A DNA stretch of 64,000 nt from Deltaproteobacteria bacterium (GCA_019307065.1 JAFDKH010000052.1:5097-69096); one strand, 5' to 3'. Shown: positions 7,550-30,358, numbered from the stretch's first letter. A program made the numbers and translations. Notes: generated by a model not told the origin, from the sequence alone.

Positions 7550-7638
7550 TATGTTAGTTGCTGTTATAGACCGTATCTGGGTTTATTACAGCAACTTATG
7601 CTGATAAAATCAGTAGTACCATAGCAGCGGAGAATTTC

Positions 7639-7914: not shown

Positions 7915-7928
7915 TACAAGTAGGATAT

Positions 7929-8297
7929 GTGCATATGATTCCGTACTTCTACTTCTATTTGCTAGCAAGGAGCCCGGCAGATTTGGACAGCGAACACAAA
8001 CTCACCCGCTGGCCTGAAGATCGAATGCTCCCGTCCAGGCGGGACATGGAGGATGTCCTCTATAAAGAGGGATGGAAACCTTTCAGGATGGTTGATCCTC
8101 CCTGTACCTACTACCACACAAAATGTCACGACAAGTCCGAAGTGCGCTGGGTAATCCGTGGTCAGATTCTGGTGGGACTCGAAAAGTGCCAGATTATGCT
8201 GAGTATTGGTGACCGGTTGGAACTTCAAGCCGGTACACCTCATTGGGTGAGAATCCTCTCGGACGATGGTGCCGTTTATTTGCTGGCTTCTAGATAG
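7929..8297 (+). CDS. Cupin-fold protein (start may be ATG 7935)
   Basis: Cupin-like motif 1 (HTKCHDKSEVRWVIRG) and motif 2 (GDRLELQAGTPHWV). The 3' end overlaps convergent truD by 22 nt. Confidence 0.5.
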   Translation: MHMIPYFYFYLLARSPADLDSEHKLTRWPEDRMLPSRRDMEDVLYKEGWKPFRMVDPPCTYYHTKCHDKSEVRWVIRGQILVGLEKCQIMLSIGDRLELQAGTPHWVRILSDDGAVYLLASR

Positions 8298-9727: not shown

Positions 9728-12469
9728 TTATCTCCCCTTGTCCTGGGTAACATAAGCGGTAAAGCAAAAATGGCGGCGGCCGGTGAAACGCGCATCCGAT
9801 TGAATCGTGACTCGCCCGGTTTTACCCCGCAGCCCAGGTGTGGCCGCATCCCACGCATGCCAGCCACGGCGCGCCGGACAGGTGAAACGGCCAAGCTCGG
9901 TACTGTCGAAGGAAACAGTCAGATTGACGTCATGCCGGTTGGGCGGTTCAACGACCGAATCATCCAAACCAAAATACCCCTGAATGTGATCGTCGAGGGT
10001 GACGTTGTCAAAATGCAGGGTAAACTTGGCCCGTTCGATCGGGTGCAACCAAATGCATTGGCGCAGCATATGATCCGAGACGATTATCTTTTCTCCGGCA
10101 AAGTTCCAGGCCGGGCCCGGGCACTGAATTTTTGAGCCTTTGTATTTGTCGCATGGTCTGGTCCCCGAGGCACTAATCACTTCGGCTTGTGCCTCGGGCA
10201 GCCGGTCCGCCAGATCGCTCATGATTCGGCGGCCGGGAAAGTCAGGGCTGGCCGGAAGTACAAGACGCAACACCAAGGCCAGCGAACCCATCAATAATAC
10301 AGCCAAGGTCGCCAGGCTGACGATATCACAAACCGCAGTTGCGATCGGTCTCAGGCGCTTATTCAAATAAGCTCTCAATTTGCTGAAAAACCCGACAGAG
10401 ATTAGCAGGGAGAATACCAGAACCGACAACCAGGAAAGAATGGCGCCAATCCACTCGAGGCCGCCGGCCTTGTAACGTAGATGCAGGTTGCCATTGTCGA
10501 CAGGCACCTGCATGAATACCTCGGGACTATCGCCGATCGAAGCACCTGAAATGGGCAGTTGCTCACCGTTTTGCTCAGCTTGCCAGAGTGCATATCTGGC
10601 TTTATTGATGATGAGTCGGCTGTCCGGCCCAGCTGCGCTTATCTGAATATCCAAAGCTTCGGGTTCATCCAGGGTTACAGTCGCCGAGCCCGGGCCCGTC
10701 AGGCTGATTCGTTTGGAGCTATAGTCATTGAATCGATATAACCGCAGACGGCCGAAACGGTCCAGCTCTGTCAGATCTGTCCGATGCAAGGCGTGAGCCG
10801 AAAGAACGTGGCTAATGTTGACCGCTTTCCAGACTGAGGCATCGCGTGACTCGAATTTGAAGCGGTAGTTGTTTTCAGGTGTGAAACCTATTTTAAAAAT
10901 CGGCAGGCCGGTATAAACCGGCAGGGCGACCAGCAAATGATCATGAGTTTGTGACAAGATTGCGATACGCCCGGTTGTTTTTCTATCGAGCGAGTTGAGG
11001 TGGTCGGCTGCCTGACGCAAATCATGGTAACTATTTGATTGCGATGCCCAGGTCAGGGGCTTGTCGGGAGCCAGGAAGGGATAAGGACCCGACCGGGTCG
11101 AGTAGAAGATAAATGGAGCGATCATGGCAGCCAGCAAAAATCTGCGGCCATGACGCTTCAAGGCTGATTCGTAGGGGCGGTGATTTGCCGGGTTAGTTGC
11201 CGGCTTACGGATAATATACTCTAACAGAAAGCCGCAGCCCAGTAACATGGCAGTCCTGATGATGTAGGCGAAGCGTTCGAGCTGAAGATGAGCGATCGCG
11301 GGGAACTTTTGGAGTATGTCGAAAGACAGCAAAAAGGTCGTTGACGAGAAAAACAGCAGTAGTCCGGAGACTACCAGTAAAAACATCGGAAACGGTTCTC
11401 GGCGACGGGTTCCCAGTACCAGCCCCAGGATTCCTCCGATTAGAAAAACCGGGCCGAACTGTGCCAGCGCGTTGCCTTCGGTGATGCCGCGCACAATTGT
11501 TTCAAAGGGCAGCCAGAAGTAGGCTAACGGTTCGAACCAATCTTGACGTCCGATAAAAGGGATCAACCAGAAAGCGCTCAGGCCGAACCCCAACAGACCG
11601 GCTGCTACGACTCGGGGCAGCCAGAGACCCGGAGCCGGAAGCCTGGCGGCCAGGACCATTATCAGAATATAAACCGGTAACATGACTCCCAGGAAGGCAA
11701 CTGCCATCGGATGACACAGAATAGCGCCGCAAATAAACAGACTTGTGGCTAGCAGGTTCTTCGAACCGGCTTTGAGGAGCAGACGGTCGAGGCTCCACAG
11801 GCTCCACAAACAAAGCGAGAAACTGAGTCCCATGGACCAGACACCCCATTCGAGATTGAAATCCCAACCTGATTGAAACCAGGCCCCGCGATCCACCAGC
11901 CCGAGCAAAGCGGCCAGCAGGCCGGCCCAGGGACCAGCGAAGCGCCGACCAAGGGCGTATAGCGCGGCTGGATAGGAAAGGACGAAAAGAAACAGAGCCC
12001 AGCAATAAGCGGTCTCCCAAGACAGTATGCCCAGGCTAAAAACCCGCAGGGCGACTACTAAAAGATCTGTGCCGAGCGGATACAAGCTATTGGCCGGATA
12101 GCCGGCGAACATCATATTAGAGAAGCCGGTCAGCGATCCCTCTGATAGTAACTGCGTCCCGGTATTCCAGGCCCGGTATAAAAACACAGGGTGATCATGG
12201 TTAATCGGCAGGTCTCCGATTAGCAGTCGTCCGTAAAGAATTACAGCCACAACCAGAATCACCAAGGGGCCTGCGGCTTCACCGATCCAGCCGGGCGTTC
12301 GCTTCCAGATGTCTTTGGGTAGCCGGTCGTAAAAATTCAGGATCACAATTACGAGTGCTGGAATTGCACACACTTGGAGTGCCTCATTGCCAAGCAATAG
12401 GAACAAAATGGCTAGCAGGCCAGCGCAGGACCATGATACAATTTTGAGCATGGAGGCGAAGATTATCAC
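9728..12469 (-). CDS. Large polytopic membrane protein, possibly a GT-C-type glycosyltransferase; function uncertain
   Basis: 913 aa. The N-terminal ~480 aa form at least 12 hydrophobic spans, followed by a soluble domain and two more spans near aa 690-750. No catalytic motif could be verified by eye. Confidence 0.7.
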   Translation of the reverse strand: MIIFASMLKIVSWSCAGLLAILFLLLGNEALQVCAIPALVIVILNFYDRLPKDIWKRTPGWIGEAAGPLVILVVAVILYGRLLIGDLPINHDHPVFLYRAWNTGTQLLSEGSLTGFSNMMFAGYPANSLYPLGTDLLVVALRVFSLGILSWETAYCWALFLFVLSYPAALYALGRRFAGPWAGLLAALLGLVDRGAWFQSGWDFNLEWGVWSMGLSFSLCLWSLWSLDRLLLKAGSKNLLATSLFICGAILCHPMAVAFLGVMLPVYILIMVLAARLPAPGLWLPRVVAAGLLGFGLSAFWLIPFIGRQDWFEPLAYFWLPFETIVRGITEGNALAQFGPVFLIGGILGLVLGTRRREPFPMFLLVVSGLLLFFSSTTFLLSFDILQKFPAIAHLQLERFAYIIRTAMLLGCGFLLEYIIRKPATNPANHRPYESALKRHGRRFLLAAMIAPFIFYSTRSGPYPFLAPDKPLTWASQSNSYHDLRQAADHLNSLDRKTTGRIAILSQTHDHLLVALPVYTGLPIFKIGFTPENNYRFKFESRDASVWKAVNISHVLSAHALHRTDLTELDRFGRLRLYRFNDYSSKRISLTGPGSATVTLDEPEALDIQISAAGPDSRLIINKARYALWQAEQNGEQLPISGASIGDSPEVFMQVPVDNGNLHLRYKAGGLEWIGAILSWLSVLVFSLLISVGFFSKLRAYLNKRLRPIATAVCDIVSLATLAVLLMGSLALVLRLVLPASPDFPGRRIMSDLADRLPEAQAEVISASGTRPCDKYKGSKIQCPGPAWNFAGEKIIVSDHMLRQCIWLHPIERAKFTLHFDNVTLDDHIQGYFGLDDSVVEPPNRHDVNLTVSFDSTELGRFTCPARRGWHAWDAATPGLRGKTGRVTIQSDARFTGRRHFCFTAYVTQDKGR

Positions 12470-12563: not shown

Positions 12564-13229
12564 ATGAGCAAATCAAGTAAAGAACATAAGTTCCATCTGG
12601 TATTTGAATCCGCTGAAGAGTTCGACAGTACTTTTACGCGCCGGGGCGCTGAAACGGGGTTGTTTTTCAAATCGAATCGTGAGCTGGTAGTCGGCGATGG
12701 GGTTACTATTCAGGTTTCTATCAAGGGCATTCGCGATCCGGTATTTTTACAAGGTCGAGTAGTTTGGCGGCGTCATCGCTCCGGCGGCCCCAAAATGCCG
12801 GCTGGGGTTTTTGTTGGTTTGGTAGATCGAGATCGTGCCCGTTTGGATGCCATCGTAAAGTTTCTCAAATCACCCCAAAAGGCCAACCGGCGCCAGCATC
12901 TGCGCTTTCCGGTCCAACTCAAGGCGACCTATGATACTTCCAAAGGTAGCTTTCCGTCAGAGATTCGCAATCTCTCCAAGGGTGGTGCCTTTCTGCGCTG
13001 TATGGGGCCTCTTCTGACGGTAGGAGCCAGGTTCCCATTGGATCTTTCCCTGGATGACCGTGGAGGGAAACGCGTTCCTCTTGACGTAAAGGTTGCCTGG
13101 ATTGACTACTTTGAAGACACGCAGGGCATGGGAGTTGTGTTTGTCAAAGGCCAGATTCAGCTAAAAAAAGTCATACGTCTAATCGGCAACCTGGAAAAAA
13201 ATTTAAAAAAGAACAAATCCCTTTCTTAA
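12564..13229 (+). CDS. PilZ-domain protein (degenerate N-terminal half, intact C-terminal PilZ)
   Basis: The C-terminal half carries RRQHLR (RRxxxR) and NLSKGG ((D/N)xSxxG), the c-di-GMP binding motifs. The N-terminal half lacks them. Confidence 0.8.
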   Translation: MSKSSKEHKFHLVFESAEEFDSTFTRRGAETGLFFKSNRELVVGDGVTIQVSIKGIRDPVFLQGRVVWRRHRSGGPKMPAGVFVGLVDRDRARLDAIVKFLKSPQKANRRQHLRFPVQLKATYDTSKGSFPSEIRNLSKGGAFLRCMGPLLTVGARFPLDLSLDDRGGKRVPLDVKVAWIDYFEDTQGMGVVFVKGQIQLKKVIRLIGNLEKNLKKNKSLS

Positions 13230-13404
13230 TCAATTCTGGGCTGAATTCCGCTATTATCAGTTGTTGAAATTAAGCTCGCCGACCATATCTGTTGAGCCAA
13301 AAGTCGTCAAACAACCCGGAACTTCACGATTTTTGTATGGTCAGTTCTTGCACCGTTCCCGGGGCTTTGATAGGATGCCAAAATCACAGGGGGTCAGGTA
13401 TTTT

Positions 13405-14145
13405 ATGAGCGCTGCACAGGGCAATAGAACAATAATGTTGGGCGAACTCCTGCTCAAGGCTGGAGTGATTACCGAACAGCAGCTTAGAGCGGCCCTGACC
13501 GAGCAGAAAAAATGGGGCGGAAAACTGGGTAGTCTTCTGGTCGACATGAATTTCTTGGACGAGGACACGTTGGTCAAAGCACTTAGCAAGCAATTGAACC
13601 TCCCGCGAGTCGATTTTGAAGGATTAGTAATTTCAGCCGAAGCGGTTCAGAATTTAGAAGCGGATTTTGCCGAGCAGCATCAGGTCTTGCCGATTTCCTT
13701 TGTGGCCGCCAAGAAACAATTAGTTGTTGCCATGGCAGATCCGCGTAACCTCGGAATAGTAGATGAAATCGGATTCAAGACGGGTTGTAAAGTGCAAGTG
13801 GCTATCGCCGGAGAGAAGGCATTAGCCGTCAAAATCCGTGAAAAGTATTTTGGTGAAAACCTGCCGGTCAGGGCCACATCTGTGAATCAGTCGACAGAGC
13901 AAGCAATGGAGTTTACTACGCCGCTCGGCGATAAAATGGTCAGCGCAGATGAAGACAGGTTTATGGTAGACGAAAAACCAACCCCGGCGGCCAAACCCGG
14001 AGGTACTGCGAGTTTCAGTGAGAAGCTCAAACGACTAGAGTTATTGCAAAAGAAGCAGGTACAAGTACTGAAAGTCGTTGTTGAGTTGCTAATGGAAAAA
14101 GGCTATTTCACGCGTGATGAGTACCGCGAAAGGGTCGATCAGTAA
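13405..14145 (+). CDS. Stand-alone MshEN / T2SSE_N domain protein (no ATPase domain)
   Basis: Two tandem 24-residue MshEN-type motifs separated by a 5-residue spacer: MLGELLLKAGVITEQQLRAALTEQ-KKWGG-KLGSLLVDMNFLDEDTLVKALSKQ. The rest of the GspE N-terminal fold follows (VLPISFVAAKKQLVVAMADPRNL). Start taken at Met49 of the tracked ORF; it is uncertain. Confidence 0.7.
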   Translation: MSAAQGNRTIMLGELLLKAGVITEQQLRAALTEQKKWGGKLGSLLVDMNFLDEDTLVKALSKQLNLPRVDFEGLVISAEAVQNLEADFAEQHQVLPISFVAAKKQLVVAMADPRNLGIVDEIGFKTGCKVQVAIAGEKALAVKIREKYFGENLPVRATSVNQSTEQAMEFTTPLGDKMVSADEDRFMVDEKPTPAAKPGGTASFSEKLKRLELLQKKQVQVLKVVVELLMEKGYFTRDEYRERVDQ

Positions 14146-14156
14146 GGAGGATCCCG

Positions 14157-15746
14157 ATGGCGGGTAAAAAACAACTGGGCCAGATACTGCTTGAGGCTGG
14201 AGTTATCGATGAATTTCAGCTTAAGTCCGCACTTGGCTATCAGAAACAATGGGGTGGTCAACTGGGAAAAGTCCTGGTCGAGAACCGCTTTATTACCCAA
14301 GAAACCCTGGTGGATGCTATTCACAGCCAGACAGATATCCCGATCGTCAAGCTTCAAAATTCTACTATTCCAGATTACCTGAAGAAGATGGTTCCCGAAG
14401 ACCTGGCAACCAAGTTTTGTTTGGTCCCGGTTAAAATCGAGGGAGAGCCTGGCAAGTCCAGTGAAGCCCTGGTGGTCGCCATGGCGGAACCTACCAATTT
14501 GACCGCCCTTGACGAGATTCGTTTTCGTACAGGAAAAAAAGTCAAAGCGCTGCTAGCTACTGAGAGTTCGATCGACAGATCCATCCGGGTGAATTATAAA
14601 GGAGAGCAAGTAGACGATGAACCGGAGGTAATCGGTCAAGATCCCGAAGATATTCAATTTGCCGGTCCCGAATTCGCTGGTGAAGATATGCAGATCGTAC
14701 AGGGTAGACTCGAATCGGGAGAACAAAAAGTAAGTCCTGATTCTGAACCTGAACTCGACGATCCCTTTGCCCAGTTGGAGTCATTGGCCCGCGGTCCTGA
14801 CCCAGCAGAAAGCGTTTTGGCTTCACAATCAAAGGCGGCCCAGAAGGCTCCGTCTCAAGCAGTCGCGCCTCTCGTGCCCGAAGCTGCTTCTGAAGCAGGT
14901 CCGGTCCCGATTGAAGCCATTGCGGATGCTATGGACGTCGATATCGATCTGGATTCCGGATTTGATCAAGATTCACAAGCGGCTCAGGTCAGCGAAGATG
15001 AACTGCCTGAAGTCGAGATTTTCGAAGAACTTCCTATGGCTGAGGCGTCTGAAGTACAGACACTAGCTAGCGAACAACCAGCGCCGGTTGCTGAGCCTGA
15101 AAAAGCTGCGACTCCTTCGCCAACTCCGATTGCACCAAAACCCGCAGCCCAACAGCCTGCCAGCCCGCAGACTGCTGACGAGACGGCGCCTGACAATCAA
15201 ACAAACAAGGCCTTCGGTATGTCGGGTGATTTATTAGGCTCAACAAAATCAGATTCAGACAGCCTTCAAGATTCTGATGCTTCACCGAAGCCGGCAATCT
15301 CGGGCCCACTTATTCAAATGCCTGATGAACCTGTTGAGACAGTATCTAAGAGTGATACTGCTGGGTCAGCGGGAGAAAGCAGTAATATCGCCAGGAAGTC
15401 AGCTATGGAGGCCTTGCTGTCCCGAGTAGGGGTCGGTGCTAAACAAGAGGCAGTTAAGTCAGCAGCCGAGCCGGTCCAGAAACCGGCCGCACAAGAACAA
15501 GTCAAGCCAGCTGAACCTGATCCGGTCGGACCTGCAGATGAAGCCCAGAACAAGAAGGAGCTATTTGCCGCAGGATTGGGCGATGAGGTGTCGAATCTTC
15601 TCGAACGACTGGAATCAGCTCAGACAGATGAAGAACTGCCCCAAGTAGTGAATTCCAGCCACATGATTGCGGCAATTGTCCGGTTGCTTCTCAAGAAGGA
15701 AATCTTCTCGGAGACCGAGTTTCTCGAGGAATTGAAAGGTCGCTGA
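14157..15746 (+). CDS. Stand-alone MshEN / T2SSE_N domain protein with a ~350-aa acidic Pro/Ala/Glu-rich tail
   Basis: QLGQILLEAGVIDEFQLKSALGYQ-KQWGG-QLGKVLVENRFITQETLVDAIHSQ, then LVPVKIEGE...LVVAMAEPTNL. A long low-complexity region follows. The C-terminal helix (AAIVRLLLKKEIFSETEFLEEL) resembles the C-terminus of the preceding paralog. Confidence 0.75.
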   Translation: MAGKKQLGQILLEAGVIDEFQLKSALGYQKQWGGQLGKVLVENRFITQETLVDAIHSQTDIPIVKLQNSTIPDYLKKMVPEDLATKFCLVPVKIEGEPGKSSEALVVAMAEPTNLTALDEIRFRTGKKVKALLATESSIDRSIRVNYKGEQVDDEPEVIGQDPEDIQFAGPEFAGEDMQIVQGRLESGEQKVSPDSEPELDDPFAQLESLARGPDPAESVLASQSKAAQKAPSQAVAPLVPEAASEAGPVPIEAIADAMDVDIDLDSGFDQDSQAAQVSEDELPEVEIFEELPMAEASEVQTLASEQPAPVAEPEKAATPSPTPIAPKPAAQQPASPQTADETAPDNQTNKAFGMSGDLLGSTKSDSDSLQDSDASPKPAISGPLIQMPDEPVETVSKSDTAGSAGESSNIARKSAMEALLSRVGVGAKQEAVKSAAEPVQKPAAQEQVKPAEPDPVGPADEAQNKKELFAAGLGDEVSNLLERLESAQTDEELPQVVNSSHMIAAIVRLLLKKEIFSETEFLEELKGR

Positions 15747-15757
15747 GGTCTGGAAAT

Positions 15758-16246
15758 ATGCGCAGTGAAGCTGCCAGAGCTCGAGCACTTCGACGAGGTC
15801 CTGGGGTTGCCGGATTCTTGCTGGCGCATCACTGGCCGGGCCAATTGGATCGCTGCTACCAATTGTGGGTTGGTCAACACCCGCTTTGGTTGTGTGCTCG
15901 TTGTAGTGGTATCTACCCGGCCCTGTTTGCAACACTTGTCATACAGCTTATCTGGGCAGGTTCGTATTCTTCCTGGGATTGGCTCTGGTTGTTCGGGCTG
16001 CCGTTAGTGGCTGTCGCCGACTGGGCCTTCGACCGTCTTAGCCTGAGAGTCAGCAACAACTTTTGGCGAACTGCCAGCGGTTTTTTTCTTGGCGTTTCGC
16101 TGGGGCGGACTGTTTATCTGAACATGATTTACCCTTTCAACAAGATGGTGGTTGTGCAATTGTTATGTTTAGTTGGTATTGTGATTTCGGTCGAGATCGT
16201 GGCCCGTTTGATAAAAACCGGCAGCCGGTCGAAACATATGAATTGA
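15758..16246 (+). CDS. DUF2085-like small membrane protein
   Basis: 162 aa with about 4 hydrophobic spans and the CARCSGIYPA motif typical of DUF2085 as I remember it. Confidence 0.5.
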   Translation: MRSEAARARALRRGPGVAGFLLAHHWPGQLDRCYQLWVGQHPLWLCARCSGIYPALFATLVIQLIWAGSYSSWDWLWLFGLPLVAVADWAFDRLSLRVSNNFWRTASGFFLGVSLGRTVYLNMIYPFNKMVVVQLLCLVGIVISVEIVARLIKTGSRSKHMN

Positions 16247-16461
16247 AGGTAGAAAGCGTAAGAAGAGAGCCTTCGGCCGATGGATTCAAGAAGATTGAGT
16301 ATCTCAGATTCATTGGTGCCAACAATTGTCCGGCCTGTGGCGAGGAAGTTGCCGCCGAGGCCTATGTATGTGTTCGCGACGATGAAGGCCAGATAGTCGA
16401 AAAATACCGTTGTTCGATTTGCGGTGTCGATTATGCTTTCCCTACCGACGTAGTTCATTAA
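16243..16461 (+). CDS. Small zinc-ribbon protein (two CxxC pairs)
   Basis: An in-frame TTG at 16243 overlaps the upstream stop as TTGA. The protein contains CPACGEE...CSICG. The tracked longer ORF from 16063 would overlap the DUF2085 gene by 184 nt, so I shortened it. Confidence 0.4.
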   Translation: MKVESVRREPSADGFKKIEYLRFIGANNCPACGEEVAAEAYVCVRDDEGQIVEKYRCSICGVDYAFPTDVVH

Positions 16462-16481
16462 AACCCCAAAATAAAAAGCTT

Positions 16482-16509
16482 TTGACATCCGGGTCTGCGT
16501 TGGGATAAC
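16482..16509 (+). promoter_or_regulatory. Weak candidate sigma-70 promoter upstream of cpaB
   Basis: TTGACA (16482-16487), 16-nt spacer, GATAAC (16504-16509), inside the 164-nt gap before cpaB. Confidence 0.2.
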
Positions 16510-16625
16510 CTCGGAAAAGCACGAAATTGCTGACTATTCCACGGATTAGACAGCATCTGGGTATCTCACGGAAGGGCCCAGAGCGTAGCAGCCTCGGGAA
16601 TCGAAAGAGGAAAGGAGAAGTCCAT

Positions 16626-17429
16626 ATGTTGAAAGGAAAAGCACCCCTAATCATTGCCTTGGGACTCGGATTGATGGCGGCTTTGCTTGCTTACAAGACC
16701 ATGCAGCGTGCCGAGGAGAAGGTTAAAGAAGGCTGGACATTGATGCCCGTAGTAGTTTCCAACCGAGATATAGTCGAAGGTACTGTTCTGGATTACGACA
16801 TGGTTGCCAAACATCAAATGCCCGAGCAATTCATGACACCTAGTATTGTCAGTCCCAAGCAGTTCGAGAAAGTGATTGGCCAGAAGCTGATGGTGCCGCT
16901 CCAACGCGGCGATCTCATTCTCTGGAGCCATTTTCGCTCAGAGGGTACTTTTGAACGTCTGAGCAACATTGTTCGTAAAGCCGGTCGGGCAATCAGCATT
17001 GGCATTTCCGGTGCCGAGGCGGTTGCCGGCTGGGTCAGGCCCAATGATCACATTGACATTCTTGGGACTTTCGAAGATCCCAAAACCGAAAGCCTGGTAA
17101 CAGTTACGCTCATGCAAAATGTTATTGTTTTAGCGACCGGTTCGATTACTGGCAGCACGAACATGACCATAATGAAGGACAACCAGAAGAAATACAATAA
17201 CATCACTGTCATGCTATTGCCGGAAGAGGCTGAGATCATTATTCTGGCTTCCCAACTTGGTAGCCTGTATTTATCTTTACGCAACCCCGAGGATATCGGT
17301 GGAGAAGAAGAGCGGGCTCGCGCAACGATTCAAACCCTGCTGACCGGCGAGCGAGTCAAGGCACTGAAGATAAAACGCGAAAGAACATTCCAGGTCATCC
17401 GGCTACCGACTGGCGGCGGGGGTCACTAG
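16626..17429 (+). CDS. cpaB: Flp/Tad pilus assembly protein CpaB/RcpC
   Basis: AAAGGAG RBS before ATG 16626. N-terminal TM helix (LIIALGLGLMAALLAY), a SAF-like segment (VVVSNRDIVEGTVLDYDMV) and an RcpC-like C-terminal part (VTVMLLPEEAEIIILASQLGSLYLSLR). Confidence 0.8.
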   Translation: MLKGKAPLIIALGLGLMAALLAYKTMQRAEEKVKEGWTLMPVVVSNRDIVEGTVLDYDMVAKHQMPEQFMTPSIVSPKQFEKVIGQKLMVPLQRGDLILWSHFRSEGTFERLSNIVRKAGRAISIGISGAEAVAGWVRPNDHIDILGTFEDPKTESLVTVTLMQNVIVLATGSITGSTNMTIMKDNQKKYNNITVMLLPEEAEIIILASQLGSLYLSLRNPEDIGGEEERARATIQTLLTGERVKALKIKRERTFQVIRLPTGGGGH

Positions 17430-17444
17430 TCGAAAGGACTGAGC

Positions 17445-18302
17445 ATGGATATCCTGTTCAATAAAGGCCTCACTATGTTGGTGATACTGGGGGCTGTGTT
17501 CATGTTTGCCCTCATGGTTATGAGTATCCTCAACAGGGCTTTTGCTCGGTACCAGGAAAAGTACGTTACCCAGTCGATGAGAGACTTGTCGGACATGTTT
17601 CTCTTTATCGACGGCCGGCAACTGTTAATTCTGAATATAAGTATTACAGCCCTGTTTGTTCTTGTCGGGCTTTTATTTTTCGGTACTTTTTTTACAATCA
17701 TACTTGCCGCATGTGGTTTTTTTGTTCCAACCCTGATGGTTAGAATTTTCAAGGCCATGCGTCTGAAGAAATTCAACAAGCAGCTGGTGGATTCCCTGAG
17801 CCAGATGTCAAACGCATTCAAAGCCGGCCTGACATTTCCTCAGGCCATGGAGCATATAGCCCAGGAATCCGAATCGCCGCTGGCGCAGGAATTCATGTTG
17901 TTTGTACGCGAAATCAAACTGGGCAAACCCATGGACGAGGCGCTCACCAGCATTGCAGACCGGGTTGGAAGTGAAGATCTCGATCTGGTTGTTACTGCAA
18001 CCATTATTTCCAGGCAGCTCGGTGGAAACATGGCCGAGATGTTCGATACGATTGCGGCAACTATCCGGGAGCGGTTCAGACTGGAAGGCAAGATCAAGGC
18101 CTTGACATCCCAGGGAAAGCTGCAAGGCTGGATTGTGGCGGCTTTGCCCTTGGTACTTGGACTGGTCATGAACTATATGCGGCCGGACTTGATGCAGCCA
18201 ATGTTTGATGGATGGTTCGGATATATCCTGGTATTAATAATCCTCCTGATGGAATTGGCCGGCATCTGGATGATTCGTAAAATCGTGAATATAAACGTGT
18301 AG
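17445..18302 (+). CDS. tadB: Tad platform protein TadB (T2SSF family)
   Basis: 285 aa. N-terminal TM helices, a T2SSF domain (SNAFKAGLTFPQAMEHIA...EIKLGKPMDEAL...ISRQLGGNMAEMFD) and C-terminal TM helices. Confidence 0.8.
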   Translation: MDILFNKGLTMLVILGAVFMFALMVMSILNRAFARYQEKYVTQSMRDLSDMFLFIDGRQLLILNISITALFVLVGLLFFGTFFTIILAACGFFVPTLMVRIFKAMRLKKFNKQLVDSLSQMSNAFKAGLTFPQAMEHIAQESESPLAQEFMLFVREIKLGKPMDEALTSIADRVGSEDLDLVVTATIISRQLGGNMAEMFDTIAATIRERFRLEGKIKALTSQGKLQGWIVAALPLVLGLVMNYMRPDLMQPMFDGWFGYILVLIILLMELAGIWMIRKIVNINV

Positions 18303-18318
18303 TGAAGGAGTAATTCTT

Positions 18319-19227
18319 ATGGGCGGAGATCTAGTTGGCGGAATCATGACTTTCCTGTCCTTCGTGCTGGTTCTCGGGTTTGGTTTCTTCTTGGTATATG
18401 GTGTCTGGGAAGTAGCCTTGAAGAAGTCGCTCTCTGAAGCCAAGGAATTAGAAGAACGTTCCACGATGAAAGCTATGCGCAAGGTGTTCTTGCGAAAGCT
18501 TGGTAGCTATAACCGAAGATTCATGTGGCCCAAATATGAGGCTAAAGTCAACAAGAGGATTGTCAGTGCCGGAGGTCTGGATGGGCTGAAGGCAGAAGAA
18601 GTTTTGACCTTGCAGGAGCTGGCCCTGGTATTTTTTACGATCCTGGGTATAGTGGTCACAAATTTTTTGAGAAGCGATCTGGATATTCAGGTGGGTTATT
18701 GGCTGGTGGGGCTCTTTGCGCTGCTGGGTTTTTATTACCCAAAGATTTGGGTGCGTGACCAGGTCAAGAAAAGGCAGTTCAAAATTATTCGCGAACTACC
18801 TTACAACCTCGACCTTCTGACGTTATCCGTGGAAGCCGGGCTCGATTTTCAGGCTGCGGTGGGCACCGTTGTTAAAAAGGGCAAACAGGGTCCCTTGGTG
18901 GAAGAGATGGACTTGATGCTCAAAGAGCTCAGAATAGGCAAGACTCGTCAGGTAGCTCTACGCGAAATGGCGGACAGAGTTGCCTTGCCGGCCCTGAGCC
19001 AGTTTGTGGCCGCTCTGATCCAGGCCGACCGGATGGGTACCAGCTTGGGAAAAATACTGAGAATTCAGTCGACTCAGATGCGGATCGAAAGAACCCAGCG
19101 AGCTGAAAAACTTGCCAACGAAGCTCCGGTCAAAATGCTGTTCCCGTTAATCGCTTGTATTTTCCCGACTGTGTTCATGATTCTGTTTGGGCCGATTGTC
19201 TACCAATTCATGTCAGGAGATTTCTAG
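18319..19227 (+). CDS. tadC: Tad platform protein TadC (T2SSF family)
   Basis: AAGGAG RBS. 302 aa. T2SSF domain (LPYNLDLLTLSVEAGLDFQAAV...ELRIGKTRQVALREMADRV...IQADRMGTSLGKIL). Confidence 0.8.
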   Translation: MGGDLVGGIMTFLSFVLVLGFGFFLVYGVWEVALKKSLSEAKELEERSTMKAMRKVFLRKLGSYNRRFMWPKYEAKVNKRIVSAGGLDGLKAEEVLTLQELALVFFTILGIVVTNFLRSDLDIQVGYWLVGLFALLGFYYPKIWVRDQVKKRQFKIIRELPYNLDLLTLSVEAGLDFQAAVGTVVKKGKQGPLVEEMDLMLKELRIGKTRQVALREMADRVALPALSQFVAALIQADRMGTSLGKILRIQSTQMRIERTQRAEKLANEAPVKMLFPLIACIFPTVFMILFGPIVYQFMSGDF

Positions 19228-19323
19228 TCGATCCAATGATCACCATGTTTAAATCACAAATCTTCCGGCAGTTGCCGAACGTCGAATCTAGAAGGAAAGT
19301 GGTTGTTCGTTCGGGCCTGAGAT

Positions 19324-20877
19324 TTGGCTAAGAGGGTAAGGGCTTTGGGCTTTTCGCTTAAAATCCTCGAGGGTCCGGATAGTGGCAAAGTCTATTCGTT
19401 TGATCGAGTTGAGATAACGATCGGTCGCACAATGGATAATGACGTGGTTATCCCGGATCCGGGTATTTCTCGGCAACACATGAGCATCCGCGACAAGGGC
19501 GGCGCATATATCGTCAAGGATTTGGGTAGCTCCAACGGGACCAAGTTGAATGGCAAGAAGGTAGGCGAAGAAGTGCTTCGGCCGGGCGACGTGATCATGA
19601 TGGGAACCGTGCAGGTCAGGTTCGAAGGGCCGAACGAGAGTTCTAAAAAGAAAAAGCCCGCCAAACGGCCTGCCCGGCGACAGCCGAGCAAAAGGGCTGC
19701 AACGAGCGGTCAGCGCAGGCAACCGTCTGCTCAGCAAGCTGGCGGGAGCAGGCCAGGTCGAAAACCGGTTGCCGGCGGCAGGCGACAGCCGCAGGCGGCT
19801 ACACCAAAAGGCCGGCCCCAAAAACCGATGATCCGTTCTTCGGGAGTGCGCCAGCCATCCAAAGAACCTGAGAATGTAGAAGAACCCGCCGTACAGCCCG
19901 AGCCCAGCAGGACCGGACGGCGAGGCGGAGCCCGTGGCAAACGCAGAAGGGGAGCCAAAGAGAAGTTTTCGATCAAGGGTTTGATTAGAAAAGCGGTGTC
20001 CTGGTTCAAGGCTCTGGATAAAAAATTCCAGATTGCCTTGATTGCTGGAGCTAGCGTGCTTCTGATTTTAATGGTGGTCAAGGCCATTCAAAGCGGGAAA
20101 GAAATCGTCCAGGTGGCTTCCGATCACTCTGATCAGCTTTTTACTGCCGGGCAGCGCGATGCGAAAGGTCGCTCAATGAGTTATGGCTATGGCCCGGTGA
20201 AAATTCGTTGTCGCAATTCGGCAAATTTCAAATTCAAATATGCCAATGGTCGCACGATTGTAAAATATTCCGTGGCGGCAATAGACAATCGTCAAGAAGT
20301 AGCTATTCAGCTGAATGGTATGCAAATTGGCTATGTTCCAATTACCATGGACAAATGGTCTGAAAAAATACATCTCATTCTTCCACGCAAACATCTCTTA
20401 GGAGATGAAGAAAACCGGCTGTCTTTTGTCAATACAATCAATTACAGCAATCCAGAGGCAAACCAGCACTGGGCGGTAAGGGTTACAGCAATTGATGAAA
20501 CCCCCTTACCCCAGCCCGACAGTCGAGCAGCCGAGGAGGCTTTCGGTATTGCCAAGGAGCGATACAAAACAAGAGGAGTCTCACCACCGAATGCCTACCA
20601 GGCGATGCAGAACTTTATGCGAGCCAGGGACCTGCTGGAATTACTACCGGAGGGCTCACGGCCGGAGATTTATGATGAAGCCAATGAAATGATAGAAAAA
20701 ATCAACGACGAACTCAACCGCAAGTTCAAAGATCTCATGTTTACTGCCGAGAAAGAGCAACAATTCGGCCATCATGAAAATGCCAAGGAGCTTTTCAGGC
20801 AGGTCATGATAACATTTCCAAATACGGAAGACCCGCGGCATATTCGGGCGCGTAAGAGTTATGAGCGTTACAAGTAA
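19324..20877 (+). CDS. FHA-domain membrane protein: N-terminal FHA, strongly basic linker, one TM helix, C-terminal periplasmic domain
   Basis: FHA signature ITIGRTMDNDVVIPDPGISRQHMSI...VKDLGSSNGTKLNGKKV. Arg/Lys/Pro-rich linker (KKKKPAKRPARRQPSKR...GKRRRGAKEK). TM helix FQIALIAGASVLLILMVVKAI. Confidence 0.8.
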   Translation: MAKRVRALGFSLKILEGPDSGKVYSFDRVEITIGRTMDNDVVIPDPGISRQHMSIRDKGGAYIVKDLGSSNGTKLNGKKVGEEVLRPGDVIMMGTVQVRFEGPNESSKKKKPAKRPARRQPSKRAATSGQRRQPSAQQAGGSRPGRKPVAGGRRQPQAATPKGRPQKPMIRSSGVRQPSKEPENVEEPAVQPEPSRTGRRGGARGKRRRGAKEKFSIKGLIRKAVSWFKALDKKFQIALIAGASVLLILMVVKAIQSGKEIVQVASDHSDQLFTAGQRDAKGRSMSYGYGPVKIRCRNSANFKFKYANGRTIVKYSVAAIDNRQEVAIQLNGMQIGYVPITMDKWSEKIHLILPRKHLLGDEENRLSFVNTINYSNPEANQHWAVRVTAIDETPLPQPDSRAAEEAFGIAKERYKTRGVSPPNAYQAMQNFMRARDLLELLPEGSRPEIYDEANEMIEKINDELNRKFKDLMFTAEKEQQFGHHENAKELFRQVMITFPNTEDPRHIRARKSYERYK

Positions 20878-20898
20878 TCGCTAGAATGGAAATATCTA

Positions 20899-23475
20899 AT
20901 GGGTCAGGACGAAGGGTCCAAGAGACGTAGCGAAGAGGTAACCGGAGAGAATGAAGTTCTCGACGAGCCGGAGTTAGTTTCAGATGATGACATTCTGCTG
21001 GCCGAGGATGGCGAAACAGAACATCTGGATGATGACGTCGAAGCGGAAGAAACCACCGGTAAATTCAATGTGCCGCCTGAGCACTTCAGCCAGGCACAAG
21101 TGGCGACCGCCCCGGGTGAAGCCCAGCCTGAGCTCGACGAAGAAGCGTTTGAAGAAGACACCTCTGACGTCGATCCCGCTTCAATACTAGACGAGAGTAC
21201 CCCGGTTTCAGCCGCAGAGCACGCCGGTGATGACATTGATGCGGCTGACAGTCAGCCGCATGAGGATTCCAAGGCACCCTGGGACGAGCCAACTGATGAA
21301 GGCGATGACCGGCCAGCTGAAGTCGAGGCCGATGATGTCTTTGAGGAAGATGCCGGCGATATCATGCCGGAAGAAGAAGATGATTACCAAGAGGACACTG
21401 GTCGTGACCTGGTTGATGCCGGCGATAAAGTATCCGACACACTGGATGAGCCAGCCTCCAGCATTCGCAAGTCACGCCGCAGGCGCAGACAACCTGTTGA
21501 TGATTTGGCTGACGAGCCGGACGAATATCAATCTGGTGAATATTCGGCGGATGAAGCCCAGTCTGAAGATGAGGCCGGCTGGGGCGCAGAGGAAGCGGCT
21601 GAAGGTGACGATTCAGAGCAAGGCCAGTCTTTCCCCGACCGAACTCCTCCCGATGGGGTCAAGTCTCCCTGGTTGCAGGACGAGGCTGAAGACGAAGTCG
21701 TAGCGGATGCGGCTGGCACGGTGCCTGCGGTAGATCCTGCCTTTGCTCAAAGCGATGATCCCGCTCGGGAAAAAACGCTGATATTCGGAGATGACGGGGA
21801 AGACGAGGTCTCTGAATTTCCATTCCTGGTTGTAATTGAGGGAGAAGAAGAAGGTCGCGAAATTGAGCTAATCCCGGATGAGATGTCGATTGGACGCGGG
21901 GCAGACAACGACCTGGTATTTCCCGATATTGCCTGCTCGCGTCGACATGCCTTGCTGGAACGAGACGGAGATTCTTTTTGTATTATTGATCTCGGGTCGG
22001 GCAACGGTACTAAAGTAAATGACCAGCGTATTCAAAGGGAACTCCTCTACGATGGCGACGAGATCAAGGTCGGCAGTACCGTCTTGCAGTTCAATTTACC
22101 TGGAGCAGAACCGGCAGATGGCGGTCAGCGTGCTACCGGGACGGTCACTAACGCTTTGCCGGTAGACGACCGAACCAGGAGCGGGTTCGTTGCGGATCTA
22201 ATGGCCGATCCGCAAAAGCGAAAACTCGTCTTGTTCGGAGGTGGCGGGCTGCTAGGTTTTCTTCTGATTATACTGATAGTCAAAATTGTTTCTGGGCCTT
22301 CACAACCTGGGGCTCCAACACCGGATGAGCAAAGACGTCAACAGGAAGCCAAGCTGAATGCTGAATTCAAGAATTACATGCAGGAGGCCACCAGCCAGGT
22401 CAAGGATAAGAAATGGAAACAAGCCGGGCTCAATGTGCAATTGGCACTAAAGCTCAGGCCAGCCGATAAAATCGCCCTGGATTATAAAGAACACATCGAA
22501 AGGGAAAAAGCAGCCTCACGGGCCCTGTTGGATGCTAGTGATTTTCTCGAGCACAAACAATACAACGAGGCAATGATCCAGGTTAATCAGATTTCATCCG
22601 CAAGCCAATATTTTTCAGAAGCTGCCCGGCTAAAGACCGAAATTTCCACGAAGATATCGGTTGATTTGCTTGAACAGGGCAAGAAGTTTATGGATGAGAA
22701 ACAATTCGCGCAGGCAGTGCTCAAGTTTGATGAAATCCTCAAAAGGGACATTGATAATCAAGTGGCGGCGGAGTTGAAGCAACAAGCCGAAGAGCAACTC
22801 GGGATTCAGAAGAAAAGGATTTCATACCTCGAGACACAGAAGAAGAGGAAGAAGCGCAAGCGAAGAAAGACCTCAAAACCGAAAAGGGAAAAAACAGGAA
22901 TAACTGGACAGATGCTTACTTTTTATCGGAATGGTGAGATTGACAAAGCCATTCAAAAAGCCGAAGACGCGGGCGCTTCCAATAGTCTGGTAAAGTTGAA
23001 GAAGTTCAGGGGTGTTTATAAAAAAGGAATGGAGCTGTCGAAAAACATTGGAAAAGCAGCAAAGTCTCTCGAGTTTCTTACCAGGGCGGCCAAACTCGAC
23101 AAGGAAATTTCCAGGGGATCGGGCAAGTATTACAGTCTTATTCGAAAGCAGCTGGCCAAGATTTTCTTTCTCAAGGGAGTTGATGCGATGATGGGTCGTC
23201 GCTATCCTGAGGCTTACCATGCCTTTACCCGGGCCAAGAAATATGGAAACGATAGATCCCAGCAGCGTCTGCATGATCTCGAGAAAACGGCCAAGAAACT
23301 ATATGAAGAAGCCTATGTGATCAAATCGACTAATGCCGACCAGGCTATTAAGAAACTCAATACCGTACTTAAGATTATTCCCCCCAATCACATATACTAC
23401 TCCAAGGCCAAGCGGTTGAGGACAAACATCCAGGGACCGCTTGGCTCAGAATCGCCGGATGACTCCGGGTTTTGA
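20899..23475 (+). CDS. FHA-domain membrane protein: ~300-aa acidic N-terminus, central FHA, one TM helix, C-terminal TPR-like helical domain
   Basis: Asp/Glu-rich N-terminus. FHA signature MSIGRGADNDLVFPDIACSRRHALL...IIDLGSGNGTKVNDQRI. TM helix LVLFGGGGLLGFLLIILIVKIV. Helical repeats and a KKRKKRKRRK patch follow. Confidence 0.8.
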   Translation: MGQDEGSKRRSEEVTGENEVLDEPELVSDDDILLAEDGETEHLDDDVEAEETTGKFNVPPEHFSQAQVATAPGEAQPELDEEAFEEDTSDVDPASILDESTPVSAAEHAGDDIDAADSQPHEDSKAPWDEPTDEGDDRPAEVEADDVFEEDAGDIMPEEEDDYQEDTGRDLVDAGDKVSDTLDEPASSIRKSRRRRRQPVDDLADEPDEYQSGEYSADEAQSEDEAGWGAEEAAEGDDSEQGQSFPDRTPPDGVKSPWLQDEAEDEVVADAAGTVPAVDPAFAQSDDPAREKTLIFGDDGEDEVSEFPFLVVIEGEEEGREIELIPDEMSIGRGADNDLVFPDIACSRRHALLERDGDSFCIIDLGSGNGTKVNDQRIQRELLYDGDEIKVGSTVLQFNLPGAEPADGGQRATGTVTNALPVDDRTRSGFVADLMADPQKRKLVLFGGGGLLGFLLIILIVKIVSGPSQPGAPTPDEQRRQQEAKLNAEFKNYMQEATSQVKDKKWKQAGLNVQLALKLRPADKIALDYKEHIEREKAASRALLDASDFLEHKQYNEAMIQVNQISSASQYFSEAARLKTEISTKISVDLLEQGKKFMDEKQFAQAVLKFDEILKRDIDNQVAAELKQQAEEQLGIQKKRISYLETQKKRKKRKRRKTSKPKREKTGITGQMLTFYRNGEIDKAIQKAEDAGASNSLVKLKKFRGVYKKGMELSKNIGKAAKSLEFLTRAAKLDKEISRGSGKYYSLIRKQLAKIFFLKGVDAMMGRRYPEAYHAFTRAKKYGNDRSQQRLHDLEKTAKKLYEEAYVIKSTNADQAIKKLNTVLKIIPPNHIYYSKAKRLRTNIQGPLGSESPDDSGF

Positions 23476-23618
23476 TCGACTATGTGTAATTCCTGACACA
23501 AAGAATTCCCCGAAATCGCTCCTATACTAGTCCGGTATTTCAGGCGTCTAGTTGCAAGTACGTTGAATAACTGCGGTTTTCTACTGAGTCCGGTCGCGAA
23601 CTTGCGGGCAGAGCCGGC

Positions 23619-23634
23619 TGGCACAAAACTCGCA
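23619..23634 (+). promoter_or_regulatory. Candidate sigma-54 (-24/-12) promoter upstream of the TPR lipoprotein gene
   Basis: TGGCACaaaacTCGCA has the exact GG-N10-GC spacing. It differs from the TGGCAC-N5-TTGCA consensus at one position of the -12 box. It lies about 80 nt upstream of ATG 23714. Confidence 0.4.
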
Positions 23635-23713
23635 GACTGGTTGAACAGAACTGGCCAGGTTCGACAGAAGAAAACATTTCAGGTGCCGCCAGGGACCGGG
23701 AAGGAGATTGGTC

Positions 23714-24691
23714 ATGAATATCAGTATTATAAAGAATGGAAAGATCGGGCTCAGTATTGCGCTGTCTGCAGCACTCATTTTTGTTGGCTGTGAATGGTCG
23801 GGAGGTTCACCTGACGGTGGCCGAGATGTAATCGAATTTCACTCGAGCGCGATCAAAAATGACGCCAAGCTGAATACGTCTGTTGAGCCGCTGATCGTAG
23901 AGCCAGATGTCGAAGTGGAAAATGAACTGGTGTCAATCAAGGCCGAAAGCAGATCCGAACAGCTTCTGGATATTGCCCTGAGTCATATGGATGATGATTT
24001 GGTTGATCACGTCAAGATCGCCTATGAACTGAGCGCGGCGGGAGACCCCGCGGCTGCAATGATAGAACTTGGCAAAGCGCTCTTCGATGACGCAAACAAC
24101 TATCAAGCAGCCATGCAATTGGGCCAGATAGCTAAAAAGAATTCCAAGCCGAACTTGGCCGAGAAGGCATTCATGGTGGCCAGCCAAATTGATCCGGAAT
24201 CCGTGGAAGCCTGGCTGCAGCTGACGCGCTTGTCGCTGGCAAACAAAGACTTCGATTTGGCCGAAGAACGAATTCAGCGCGCTCTGAGCGAAGATCCCAA
24301 AGTAGCGTCAGCCCACAATTTACTCGGACGGATTTGGTTATCACGCTCTCATTGGGAAAAGTCTATTCGCTCGTTCAAAAAAGCCACTATTTTGGCTCCT
24401 GAAAACCGATTCTATAGAAACAACCTGGGCTTTGCCTATCTACTCAAAAAGAACTTTAACCAGGCAGTCATCCAGCTTGAACTGGCTGTTGCTGGCGAAA
24501 ATACACCAGCCTACATGATAAACAATCTTGGCCTGGCATACGAAGGAGCTGGCAGACTGCAAGACGCGATTGCAACATTCGGGCAAGTAACTGAGCAGCA
24601 TCCACGCTACCTGAAGGCTCAGATAAACCTCGAGCGACTGATTGTCCTGGCCCAAAACAGCCAAGATGAGGAAAACCCGGACTCACTTTAA
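23714..24691 (+). CDS. TPR-repeat lipoprotein (TadD-like)
   Basis: AAGGAG lies 7 nt before ATG 23714. Lipobox ALIFVGC. Several TPR units (AEKAFMVASQIDPESVEAWLQL, AHNLLGRIWL..., MINNLGLAYEGAGRLQDAI). Confidence 0.7.
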   Translation: MNISIIKNGKIGLSIALSAALIFVGCEWSGGSPDGGRDVIEFHSSAIKNDAKLNTSVEPLIVEPDVEVENELVSIKAESRSEQLLDIALSHMDDDLVDHVKIAYELSAAGDPAAAMIELGKALFDDANNYQAAMQLGQIAKKNSKPNLAEKAFMVASQIDPESVEAWLQLTRLSLANKDFDLAEERIQRALSEDPKVASAHNLLGRIWLSRSHWEKSIRSFKKATILAPENRFYRNNLGFAYLLKKNFNQAVIQLELAVAGENTPAYMINNLGLAYEGAGRLQDAIATFGQVTEQHPRYLKAQINLERLIVLAQNSQDEENPDSL

Positions 24692-24742: not shown

Positions 24743-24848
24743 ATTCTGTGAACATATCCAACTCGAGAGTTTTCTGGCCGAAGATATGGATTGAAATGGC
24801 TACTTGAACCAGAACAGGGTTTTTTCTATTATCCGTAATGGAGCTCCC

Positions 24849-30345: not shown

Positions 30346-30358
30346 AAGGATGTGATCC

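Follow-up and report, generated by a model that had tools for sequence, protein, structure and literature searches.

The DNA analysed here, referred to as the window, is a stretch of 64,000 nucleotides from a Deltaproteobacteria bacterium (GCA_019307065.1, JAFDKH010000052.1:5097-69096). Positions 12564-24691 hold 11 genes, all on the + strand, among which a Tad-like module of CpaB, TadB and TadC genes is followed by two genes for proteins combining an FHA domain with a transmembrane (TM) helix; these five are termed the core genes. The locus was compared with the Kil system of Myxococcus xanthus, a Tad-like type IV filament machine whose genes are split between clusters; it very probably represents cluster II of such a Kil-type machine, here from an uncultured member of the Myxococcota. 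Upstream lies a divergent gene for a PTPS-related membrane protein (9728-12469, - strand). Domains were assigned by a Pfam scan and families by NCBIfam models with their own cutoffs, giving the following inventory (lengths in amino acids, aa; ORF, open reading frame; TPR, tetratricopeptide repeat).

12564..13229, + strand: PilZ-domain protein, 221 aa (PF07238, 75 bits); first gene of the run, clade-specific
13405..14145, + strand: MshEN-only protein 1 (MshEN1), 246 aa from the ATG at 13405, in an ORF that opens at 13261 (PF05157, 59 bits)
14157..15746, + strand: MshEN-only protein 2 (MshEN2), 529 aa (PF05157, 60 bits)
15758..16246, + strand: DUF2085 membrane protein, 162 aa (PF09858, 51 bits)
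16228..16461, start uncertain, + strand: small CxxC...CxxC zinc-ribbon protein, about 72-77 aa (weak Pfam DZR_2/Zn_ribbon matches)
16626..17429 (ORF from 16527), + strand: CpaB/RcpC family protein with N-terminal TM helix, SAF and RcpC domains, predicted KilB ortholog (PF16976, PF08666)
17445..18302, + strand: GspF/TadB-type inner-membrane platform protein with several TM segments, predicted KilG ortholog (PF00482, 72 bits)
18319..19227, + strand: GspF/TadC-type inner-membrane platform protein, predicted KilH ortholog (PF00482, 61 bits)
19345..20877 (ORF from 19324), + strand: FHA1, with FHA domain, disordered basic linker, TM helix and periplasmic domain, predicted MXAN_4649 ortholog (PF00498, PF16697)
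20899..23475, + strand: FHA2, with acidic disordered N-terminus, FHA domain, TM helix and long helical/TPR-like region, predicted MXAN_4648 ortholog (PF00498, PF16697)
23708..24691, + strand: TPR lipoprotein with lipobox FVGC (multiple TPR Pfam matches); membership of the module uncertain

All of the domains that a first-pass annotation had assigned to this interval were matched by Pfam at the expected coordinates. Hidden Markov model searches likewise agreed with its description of the flanking genes (PilZ, two MshEN-only proteins, DUF2085, zinc ribbon, two FHA-TM proteins and a TPR lipoprotein), the match of the zinc ribbon being weak. By both Pfam and NCBIfam, CpaB, TadB and TadC are contiguous at 16626-19227 on one strand, with gaps of 15-16 bp, as the same annotation had it, and the window CpaB scores 160.8 bits against the CpaB equivalog TIGR03177 (cutoff 71). 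Intergenic gaps over the locus are mostly 11-16 bp, with wider gaps before MshEN1, CpaB, FHA1 and the TPR gene; the two MshEN genes are 11 bp apart and lie in the same apparent operon. A weak terminator-like hairpin (23455-23468) falls at the stop codon of FHA2. Promoter and terminator scans of the locus gave nothing better than shuffled controls, and we therefore make no claim about operon boundaries beyond what gene spacing indicates. The start of MshEN1 is probably at 13405 and that of FHA1 probably at 19345; a DUF4388 match in MshEN1 was ignored because it is below cutoff and inside the doubtful N-terminal extension. MshEN2 consists of an N-terminal MshEN domain, a long acidic and proline-rich linker of low complexity (about 300 residues) and a conserved C-terminal helix. 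The PilZ protein falls into the myxobacterial paralog family TIGR02266 (70.9 bits; cutoff 68.7).

The zinc-ribbon protein is read from an ORF at 16063-16461, of which residues 66-132, read in the + frame, show 44-66% conservation across loci of the window clade; its counterpart in one of these (L005) was called as an 83-aa gene. A contig from JGI sample 3300033155 (L001) is 99.7-99.9% identical to the window, except that about 54 bp are inserted or deleted where DUF2085 meets the zinc ribbon (window 16254-16261, L001 3346-3393), where the gene caller chose a minus-strand ORF. The indel and the differing gene call indicate that the 5' end of this gene is variable or uncertain. A divergent KilK pilin and a remnant of a zf-HC2 anti-sigma factor were both considered for this protein and rejected, as it lacks a hydrophobic segment and resembles neither. 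In a member of the clade that has no PilZ/MshEN/DUF2085 block (L013), the gene directly before CpaB (6936-8105, + strand) encodes 389 aa in which zinc-ribbon motifs of the RanBP and double types are found. A zinc-ribbon protein before KilB may thus be a recurring feature.

The absence of the usual partners of such a module, also reported by the first-pass annotation, holds for the whole window. Pfam was run on every non-shadow ORF 150 aa or longer and found no T2SSE ATPase, secretin, A24 peptidase, TadZ/CpaE or TadE; no T2SSE-type Walker A motif was found in the 64 kb, and in no frame was there an ORF combining the G-XXXX-E-Y/F motif of Flp-type prepilins with a hydrophobic stretch. No tblastn match in the window was obtained for KilK, the Tip4 minor pilins or a pair of extracytoplasmic function (ECF) sigma and anti-sigma factors. 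We also assembled a set of about 160 related loci, each with 10-kb flanks, from the best 80 of 465 genome relatives of TadC together with metagenome contigs, and none of these contained a T2SSE-type Walker A motif. The known genetic split of the Kil machine accounts for what looks anomalous, a Tad platform with no motor, pore, pilin or peptidase.

The split was described in M. xanthus, where it was called unique among Tad systems by its authors (Seef et al. 2021 eLife, PMC8460266). Kil cluster I (MXAN_3102-3108) includes the peptidase KilA, the secretin KilC and the FHA-fused CpaF-type ATPase KilF (these three being MXAN_3105-3107), as well as KilD (PMC8460266). Cluster II (MXAN_4648-4661) includes KilB (MXAN_4652), KilG (MXAN_4651), KilH (MXAN_4650), a "PrgH-like" FHA protein (MXAN_4649) and a protein with FHA and TPR domains (MXAN_4648) (PMC8460266). 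The major pilin KilP and three more minor-pilin Tip clusters are located outside cluster II (Nat Commun 2025, PMC12075869).

The five core proteins of the window match cluster II loci of Myxococcaceae with their order unchanged. The window CpaB is 50-52% identical to the KilB orthologs of M. stipitatus and Archangium, TadB about 60% identical (278 aa aligned) to the gene that holds the place of KilG in Myxococcaceae, and TadC 56% identical to proteins of M. stipitatus (P0104) and Archangium (P0097), both encoded in Kil cluster II. FHA1 matches the Archangium gene after KilH over its full length (27%, E 1e-40), and FHA2 matches the FHA+TPR gene of M. stipitatus over 575 aa (26%, E 1e-29). The gene order in M. 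stipitatus and A. violaceum is zf-HC2, TadE, Tad, TadE, small unknowns, CpaB, T2SSF, T2SSF, FHA, FHA(+TPR), xseA. The same layout was published for MXAN_4648-4661 and, together with the ordered matches, it identifies the window core as an ortholog of Kil cluster II. The suggestion in the first-pass annotation that the locus might be half of a Kil-like split machine is thus borne out by orthology and collinearity of the five core genes with those of M. xanthus. By sequence comparison, KilB, KilG and KilH are assigned to the M. xanthus group rather than to Tad systems in general. The TadC-like protein has thousands of relatives, of which the closest named ones are metagenome-assembled genomes (MAGs) of Myxococcota (76% identity); identity to Myxococcus, Pyxidicoccus and Archangium is 55-60%. 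A search of PDB sequences with this protein found nothing. Nothing seen pointed to another Kil-like locus in Myxococcaceae, an apparent second M. stipitatus paralog (P0108) having no record.

Among M. xanthus, other relatives and the window, the core is the constant part. The M. xanthus cluster II resembles the locus in its five core genes, their order and strand, in having no ATPase, secretin or peptidase gene alongside, and in having two MshEN-only genes and one for DUF2085 upstream. The window differs in lacking the Tip4 cluster (KilL4/M4/N4), KilK, the ECF sigma and zf-HC2 anti-sigma genes and the two ABC ATPase genes that part MshEN from DUF2085; unlike M. xanthus, it adds the PilZ protein, the small zinc-ribbon protein and the downstream TPR lipoprotein. 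The outer flanks are TruD and PBP1A in the window versus ExbBD and XseA in M. xanthus. The window locus is therefore a particularly bare cluster II. An FHA gene directly follows TadC in 74 of the 74 loci with enough sequence. The 80 loci kept from the genome relatives carry Myxococcota-type record titles (MAGs labelled Myxococcota, Myxococcales or Deltaproteobacteria, and named myxobacterial genera), and those that were mapped share the same core.

The co-occurrence of all 11 genes in related genomes, which the first-pass annotation had proposed to examine, was found in six further species-level genomes (L006, L007, L008, L010, L017 and L019), where the complete unit has the same flanks and reads PilZ-MshEN-MshEN-DUF2085-Zn-ribbon-CpaB-TadB-TadC-FHA-FHA-TPR-PBP1A. 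Shorter contigs (L009, L011, L014, L015, L018 and four metagenome contigs) agree with this order. PBP1A follows the Kil module in all loci of the window clade. The TPR lipoprotein stands after FHA2 in the window clade only, Myxococcaceae having xseA there. Its description as "TadD-like" is unproven, since it scores below cutoff against the pilotin models (PilW, 70.6 bits, cutoff 154; Tgl, 48.4 bits, cutoff 225).

Pilin genes do occur in the window clade. One member, L093, whose CpaB is 81% identical to that of the window, encodes a Flp-type prepilin (containing RGQSMVEYAIIASC) at a distance of 2 kb before CpaB, which indicates that the clade does use pilins. In this locus the prepilin gene (1362-1631, + strand) is followed by three genes (1649-2380, 2385-3176 and 3195-3536) for membrane or secreted proteins with no Pfam match, and these four genes stand directly before CpaB, replacing the PilZ/MshEN/DUF2085 block. 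Two candidates for Kil partners encoded elsewhere were rejected. A 617-aa protein from an ENA contig (P0188), found through the FHA1 search, fuses an N-terminal FHA domain to an ATPase, but its CxxC...CxxC tetracysteine motif is of the GspE/PilB type, so that this FHA-motor fusion is unlike KilF, in which FHA is joined to CpaF. An FHA+TPR protein (P0166) was not accepted as KilD because it sits in an unrelated locus.

The block upstream of KilB is the only part of the locus not already explained by the literature. We counted it wherever 4 kb or more of the sequence before CpaB could be seen; an insertion of Tip genes, where present, hides the upstream region. Species-level genomes provided 61 such loci, 29 with the Tip insertion and 32 without. 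DUF2085 is found upstream of CpaB in 28 of the 32 Tip-less loci, in 23 of them together with MshEN (six also with PilZ) and in five alone, and the remaining four have neither. Metagenome contigs provided 28 loci, 10 with the insertion and 18 without; these 18 divide into 12 with MshEN and DUF2085 (four also with PilZ), three with DUF2085 only and three with neither. PilZ occurs upstream of the module in the window clade only.

In M. xanthus DK1622 the corresponding genes form the series MshEN(251)-MshEN(338)-ABC-ABC-DUF2085-ECF sigma-zf-HC2-TadE-Tad-TadE, on one strand and overlapping or nearly abutting, directly upstream of the published boundary of cluster II. The two MshEN genes are MXAN_4667 and MXAN_4666 (Table S1, PMC8844925); the DUF2085 gene is probably MXAN_4663. 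MshEN1 is 35% identical to MXAN_4667 over its full length (259 aa), MshEN2 is 31% identical to MXAN_4666 at the N-terminus and 42% over the C-terminal 45 residues, and the DUF2085 proteins of the window and M. xanthus are 32% identical. Corallococcus coralloides has the order DUF4292, MshEN, MshEN, two DppD/F-like ABC ATPases, DUF2085, ECF sigma, zf-HC2 anti-sigma, KilK, KilB. A more compact form, ExbB, DUF4292, MshEN, DUF2085, KilB, is seen in a further lineage (L156), where DUF2085 starts one base past the MshEN stop and itself abuts KilB. The outer flanks differ wholly between lineages, with TruD/YjbQ and TPR/PBP1A in the window versus ExbBD/DUF4292 and XseA/XseB in Myxococcaceae, which leaves MshEN...DUF2085...KilB-G-H-FHA as the sole conserved block. 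A search within one library of papers found none that mentions MXAN_4662, 4663, 4666 or 4667, and no link between Kil and cyclic di-GMP (c-di-GMP) beyond passing remarks.

The DppD/DppF-like pair lies between the MshEN pair and DUF2085 at M. xanthus CP080534.1 (L086, 10001-16323) and C. coralloides (L058, 1321-7682). No permease or binding-protein gene adjoins it in Myxococcaceae; its stops and starts overlap, and the ECF sigma/zf-HC2 pair comes next. In the window, by contrast, a lone gene for a peptide-binding protein (SBP_bac_5) lies downstream, at 28786-30345. About 7 kb upstream of the M. xanthus MshEN pair is a response-regulator/HD-GYP gene of the c-di-GMP phosphodiesterase type (L086, 2275-3390, - strand), probably MXAN_4675, an HD-GYP entry of PMC8844925.

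The PilZ protein has intact RxxxR (RRQHLR) and N-x-S-x-x-G (NLSKGG) motifs, in agreement with the c-di-GMP receptor motifs RxxxR and (D/N)xSxxG, and both are kept in seven of the seven orthologs checked (the window and six further). The MshEN proteins score 73 bits (MshEN1) and 59 bits (MshEN2) against NF053729, an MshE-related cyclic di-GMP-binding domain with a cutoff of 38, and residues 57-200 of MshEN1 align with PDB entries for PilB, PilF and MshE, within their N-terminal domains. Wang et al. 2016 (PMC5013675) described the MshEN motif as two 24-residue copies of RLGxx(L/V/I)(L/V/I)xxG(L/V/I)(L/V/I)xxxxLxxxLxxQ parted by five residues. Both window proteins have the tandem 24-residue motifs (53 residues with the spacer) with the Leu, Gly and Gln positions and a KKWGG/KQWGG spacer conserved. 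The Arg that opens each motif is Met and Lys in MshEN1 and Gln and Gln in MshEN2, relatives having mostly Arg or Lys, and the turn Gly of the second motif is N/R in the window proteins. Binding of c-di-GMP by the window copies is plausible on these motifs, though not assured. They share with MshE, PilB and PilF the tandem motifs, the spacer and alignment over the whole MshEN N+C fold region, but differ in being stand-alone, with no ATPase domain, and in carrying a conserved C-terminal helix. Both FHA domains retain the phosphothreonine-binding residues GR...S-R-x-H...N-G-T (in FHA1, GR..SRQH..NGT), which points to interactions dependent on Ser/Thr kinases rather than to the degenerate FHA fold of type III secretion system (T3SS) ring proteins.

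In each FHA protein a single strong hydrophobic helix lies C-terminal to the FHA domain (residues 443-461 in FHA2). An AlphaFold2 model of FHA1, built from 30 orthologs (pLDDT 80), predicts an FHA domain at 1-98, a disordered basic linker at 99-207, a long TM helix at 226-258 and a confident periplasmic region. Foldseek matches to the full-length model covered the FHA domain only, T3SS proteins included, and we therefore modelled the periplasmic region alone (pLDDT 95, pTM 0.79); it is predicted to form a beta-sandwich followed by paired helices. Foldseek matches of this domain in the PDB were to carbohydrate-binding modules (CBM35/36/6), the carbohydrate-binding domain of BcsB and TPR regions (FKBP51-TPR). 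E values ranged from 9e-6, for large fusion constructs, to about 1e-3, with CBM and BcsB at 3e-4 to 1e-3, and TM-scores were about 0.5 as normalised to small targets. The same search gave no periplasmic match to PrgH or YscD, and the alpha-beta-beta-alpha-beta repeats of ring-building motifs were not seen in the model. As the CBM-like matches are weak, we limit the description to a beta-sandwich with TPR-like helices and no ring-building motifs; a possible ligand, to go by this weak fold match, would be cell-wall glycan or another protein of the machine or its surroundings.

The first-pass annotation had compared these proteins to the YscD and TagH families. They do share with PrgH/YscD/PscD of T3SS and TagH/Fha of the type VI secretion system the succession of a cytoplasmic FHA-fold domain, one TM helix and a periplasmic part, and there is a Pfam Yop-YscD_cpl match of 65 bits and a TagH match of 58 bits (cutoff 120). 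However, the window FHA domains keep the phosphothreonine residues, and the periplasmic part is modelled as a CBM-like beta-sandwich with TPR-like helices. On this model, the likeness to YscD/PrgH is valid for topology alone: the FHA-TM architecture of the comparison stands and its extension to the periplasmic domain does not.

Three alternatives to a Kil cluster II with functional accessory genes have to be weighed, and two of them concern the core itself. The absence of canonical partners from the 64-kb window could mean that the locus is a decaying, non-functional Tad remnant left after loss of the ATPase, secretin and pilin. This is very improbable, as all ORFs are intact with catalytic and ligand-binding motifs retained, TadB and TadC are 72-78% identical between species-level MAGs and 55-60% identical to those of Myxococcaceae, and the order of the five genes is unchanged at all of the 74 loci noted above, where an FHA gene always follows TadC. 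The first-pass annotation had also raised the idea of a new variant whose motor is recruited in trans through the detached MshEN domains. Such a Tad-like machine would be self-contained and have no dedicated CpaF-type motor; its MshEN proteins would tether an ATPase of the PilB/GspE type, whole or as catalytic domain, to TadB/TadC in trans. Such a scheme would accord with the finding of an ATPase within 10 kb at 0 of about 160 related loci, with the tight linkage of two MshEN-only genes (11-bp gaps, same apparent operon), and with the occurrence of MshEN otherwise as the N-terminal module of the PilB, MshE and PilF motors. Yet M. xanthus has the same MshEN pair nearby and depends on KilF, the FHA-CpaF protein of cluster I; some members of the clade keep the five core genes without the MshEN block; and M. 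xanthus has 17-22 MshEN proteins, mostly unlinked to secretion ATPases. Recruitment of a motor through detached MshEN domains thus found no direct support and appears unlikely.

The third alternative accepts the core five as Kil cluster II and takes PilZ, MshEN1, MshEN2, DUF2085, the zinc-ribbon protein and the TPR lipoprotein to be neighbours by inherited order that play no role in the machine. It is a possibility to be kept in mind, if a somewhat doubtful one. The block is absent from L012, L013, L051, L085, L093 and L095, the TPR lipoprotein and PilZ are clade-specific, DppD/DppF-like ABC ATPases and ECF sigma/anti-sigma genes part MshEN and DUF2085 from KilB in Myxococcaceae, and the literature search noted above produced no paper on MXAN_4662, 4663, 4666 or 4667. 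Against this, MshEN...DUF2085...KilB-G-H-FHA is the sole block kept across lineages with different outer flanks, its genes share a strand and almost touch one another in both the window and L156, and the genes inserted in Myxococcus are themselves Kil genes (Tip4, KilK), suggesting one functional neighbourhood. We tentatively consider that the MshEN pair and DUF2085 could be unrecognised ancestral Kil components through which c-di-GMP would gate the place and time at which a trans-encoded KilF engages KilG/KilH, a canonical PilZ protein having joined in the window clade. On this reading, which is possible but by no means probable, PilZ-MshEN-MshEN-DUF2085-KilB-G-H-FHA-FHA would represent the compact ancestral operon.

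Several observations weigh against reading the locus as a Kil cluster II with a c-di-GMP input. Three of the four motif-initial Arg positions in the window MshEN copies are Met or Gln, so that binding of c-di-GMP is not assured. Four close relatives (L012, L013, L093 and L095) keep the five core genes without the upstream block, and Myxococcaceae have ABC ATPase and ECF sigma genes between that block and KilB; the linkage of the block to KilB may therefore be historical rather than functional. The analysis covered 64 kb of this genome, and the cluster I genes (KilF, KilC, KilA and KilD) and the pilins are predicted from M. xanthus to lie outside it. Assembly at prey contact sites and contact-dependent killing are experimental phenotypes in M. 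xanthus only (PMC8460266, PMC12075869), and a role in killing or adhesion in the window lineage is an extrapolation from that demonstration.

The locus encodes the KilG-like and KilH-like GspF proteins of an inner-membrane platform and a KilB-like CpaB that spans the periplasm towards a secretin. The two bitopic FHA-TM proteins, with a phosphothreonine-binding FHA domain predicted in the cytoplasm and a beta-sandwich/TPR-like module in the periplasm, are probably scaffold or signal-input subunits. By analogy with M. xanthus, genes elsewhere would supply the ATPase (KilF-type FHA-CpaF), the secretin (KilC-type), the prepilin peptidase and both Flp and minor pilins; the completed machine would extend and retract a short Flp filament. 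The MshEN-only pair and DUF2085 are read as an ancestral block linked to KilB-G-H, to which PilZ and the zinc-ribbon protein were added in the window clade. Conservation and retained motifs suggest that the FHA proteins could couple the platform to phosphorylation-dependent signals, and that the PilZ/MshEN/DUF2085 block might supply c-di-GMP-dependent control of assembly or activity.

Canonical Tad/Flp loci, such as tad of Aggregatibacter and cpa of Caulobacter, share with the window CpaB/RcpC and two GspF-family proteins (TadB/TadC, equivalent to CpaG/CpaH), which assemble Flp-type pilins; at the level of families this homology is clear. In those loci flp, tadV/cpaA, rcpA/cpaC, tadZ/cpaE and tadA/cpaF adjoin tadB/tadC, whereas the window has none of the five; conversely, the window has two FHA-TM proteins and canonical loci have none. 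On gene content the window locus is not a canonical Tad locus. Another parallel is found in Bdellovibrio bacteriovorus, where neighbours of the dispersed tad genes encode PilZ, FHA, TPR and histidine-kinase domains (bioRxiv 10.64898/2026.07.08.737194). The two systems are alike in genetic dispersal and in having PilZ, FHA and TPR neighbours, and B. bacteriovorus is a predator; it differs in belonging to another phylum, in its TadZA fusion and in polar, RomR-dependent localisation, and the accessory genes are compared here by domain.

The host belongs to an uncultured Myxococcota lineage and is probably an anaerobe, since the window encodes a pyruvate-formate-lyase-like glycyl-radical enzyme (847 aa) and a radical-SAM activase, with a GntR/FadR-type regulator (41802-45999), and relatives come from sediment- (anoxic), spring- and digester-type samples according to record titles. 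Surveys of activated-sludge bins reported Tad-like killing systems to be widely conserved only in Myxococcaceae. Orthologs of Kil cluster II with both FHA-TM proteins reach uncultured Myxococcota lineages, and the capacity for contact-dependent killing may thus extend beyond the cultured predators. Because the split Kil architecture accounts for the anomaly, the locus should not be treated as a new secretion system. The spatial determinants of Kil assembly at prey contact sites are described in the literature as unknown. The MshEN-DUF2085 block, including MXAN_4667/4666, for which our search found no study, offers candidate genes for a signal input to Kil assembly, which is still missing, and c-di-GMP gating, if true, would bear on how assembly starts at those sites.

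Other genes of the window were also noted. Downstream of the module, 24804-32068 (+ strand) encodes PBP1A (transglycosylase/transpeptidase), an FG-GAP-like protein, the SBP_bac_5 protein and a HAMP histidine kinase, with three junctions that overlap or nearly abut. Tandem proteins of 1180 and 1072 aa at 28-3570 and 3653-6871, with ASH, DUF1573, HYDIN-like Ig and FG-GAP repeats, are probably located at the cell surface. Two divergent genes at 46600-48141 (- strand) and 48319-49362 (+ strand) encode proteins with HEAT/PBS-lyase repeats.

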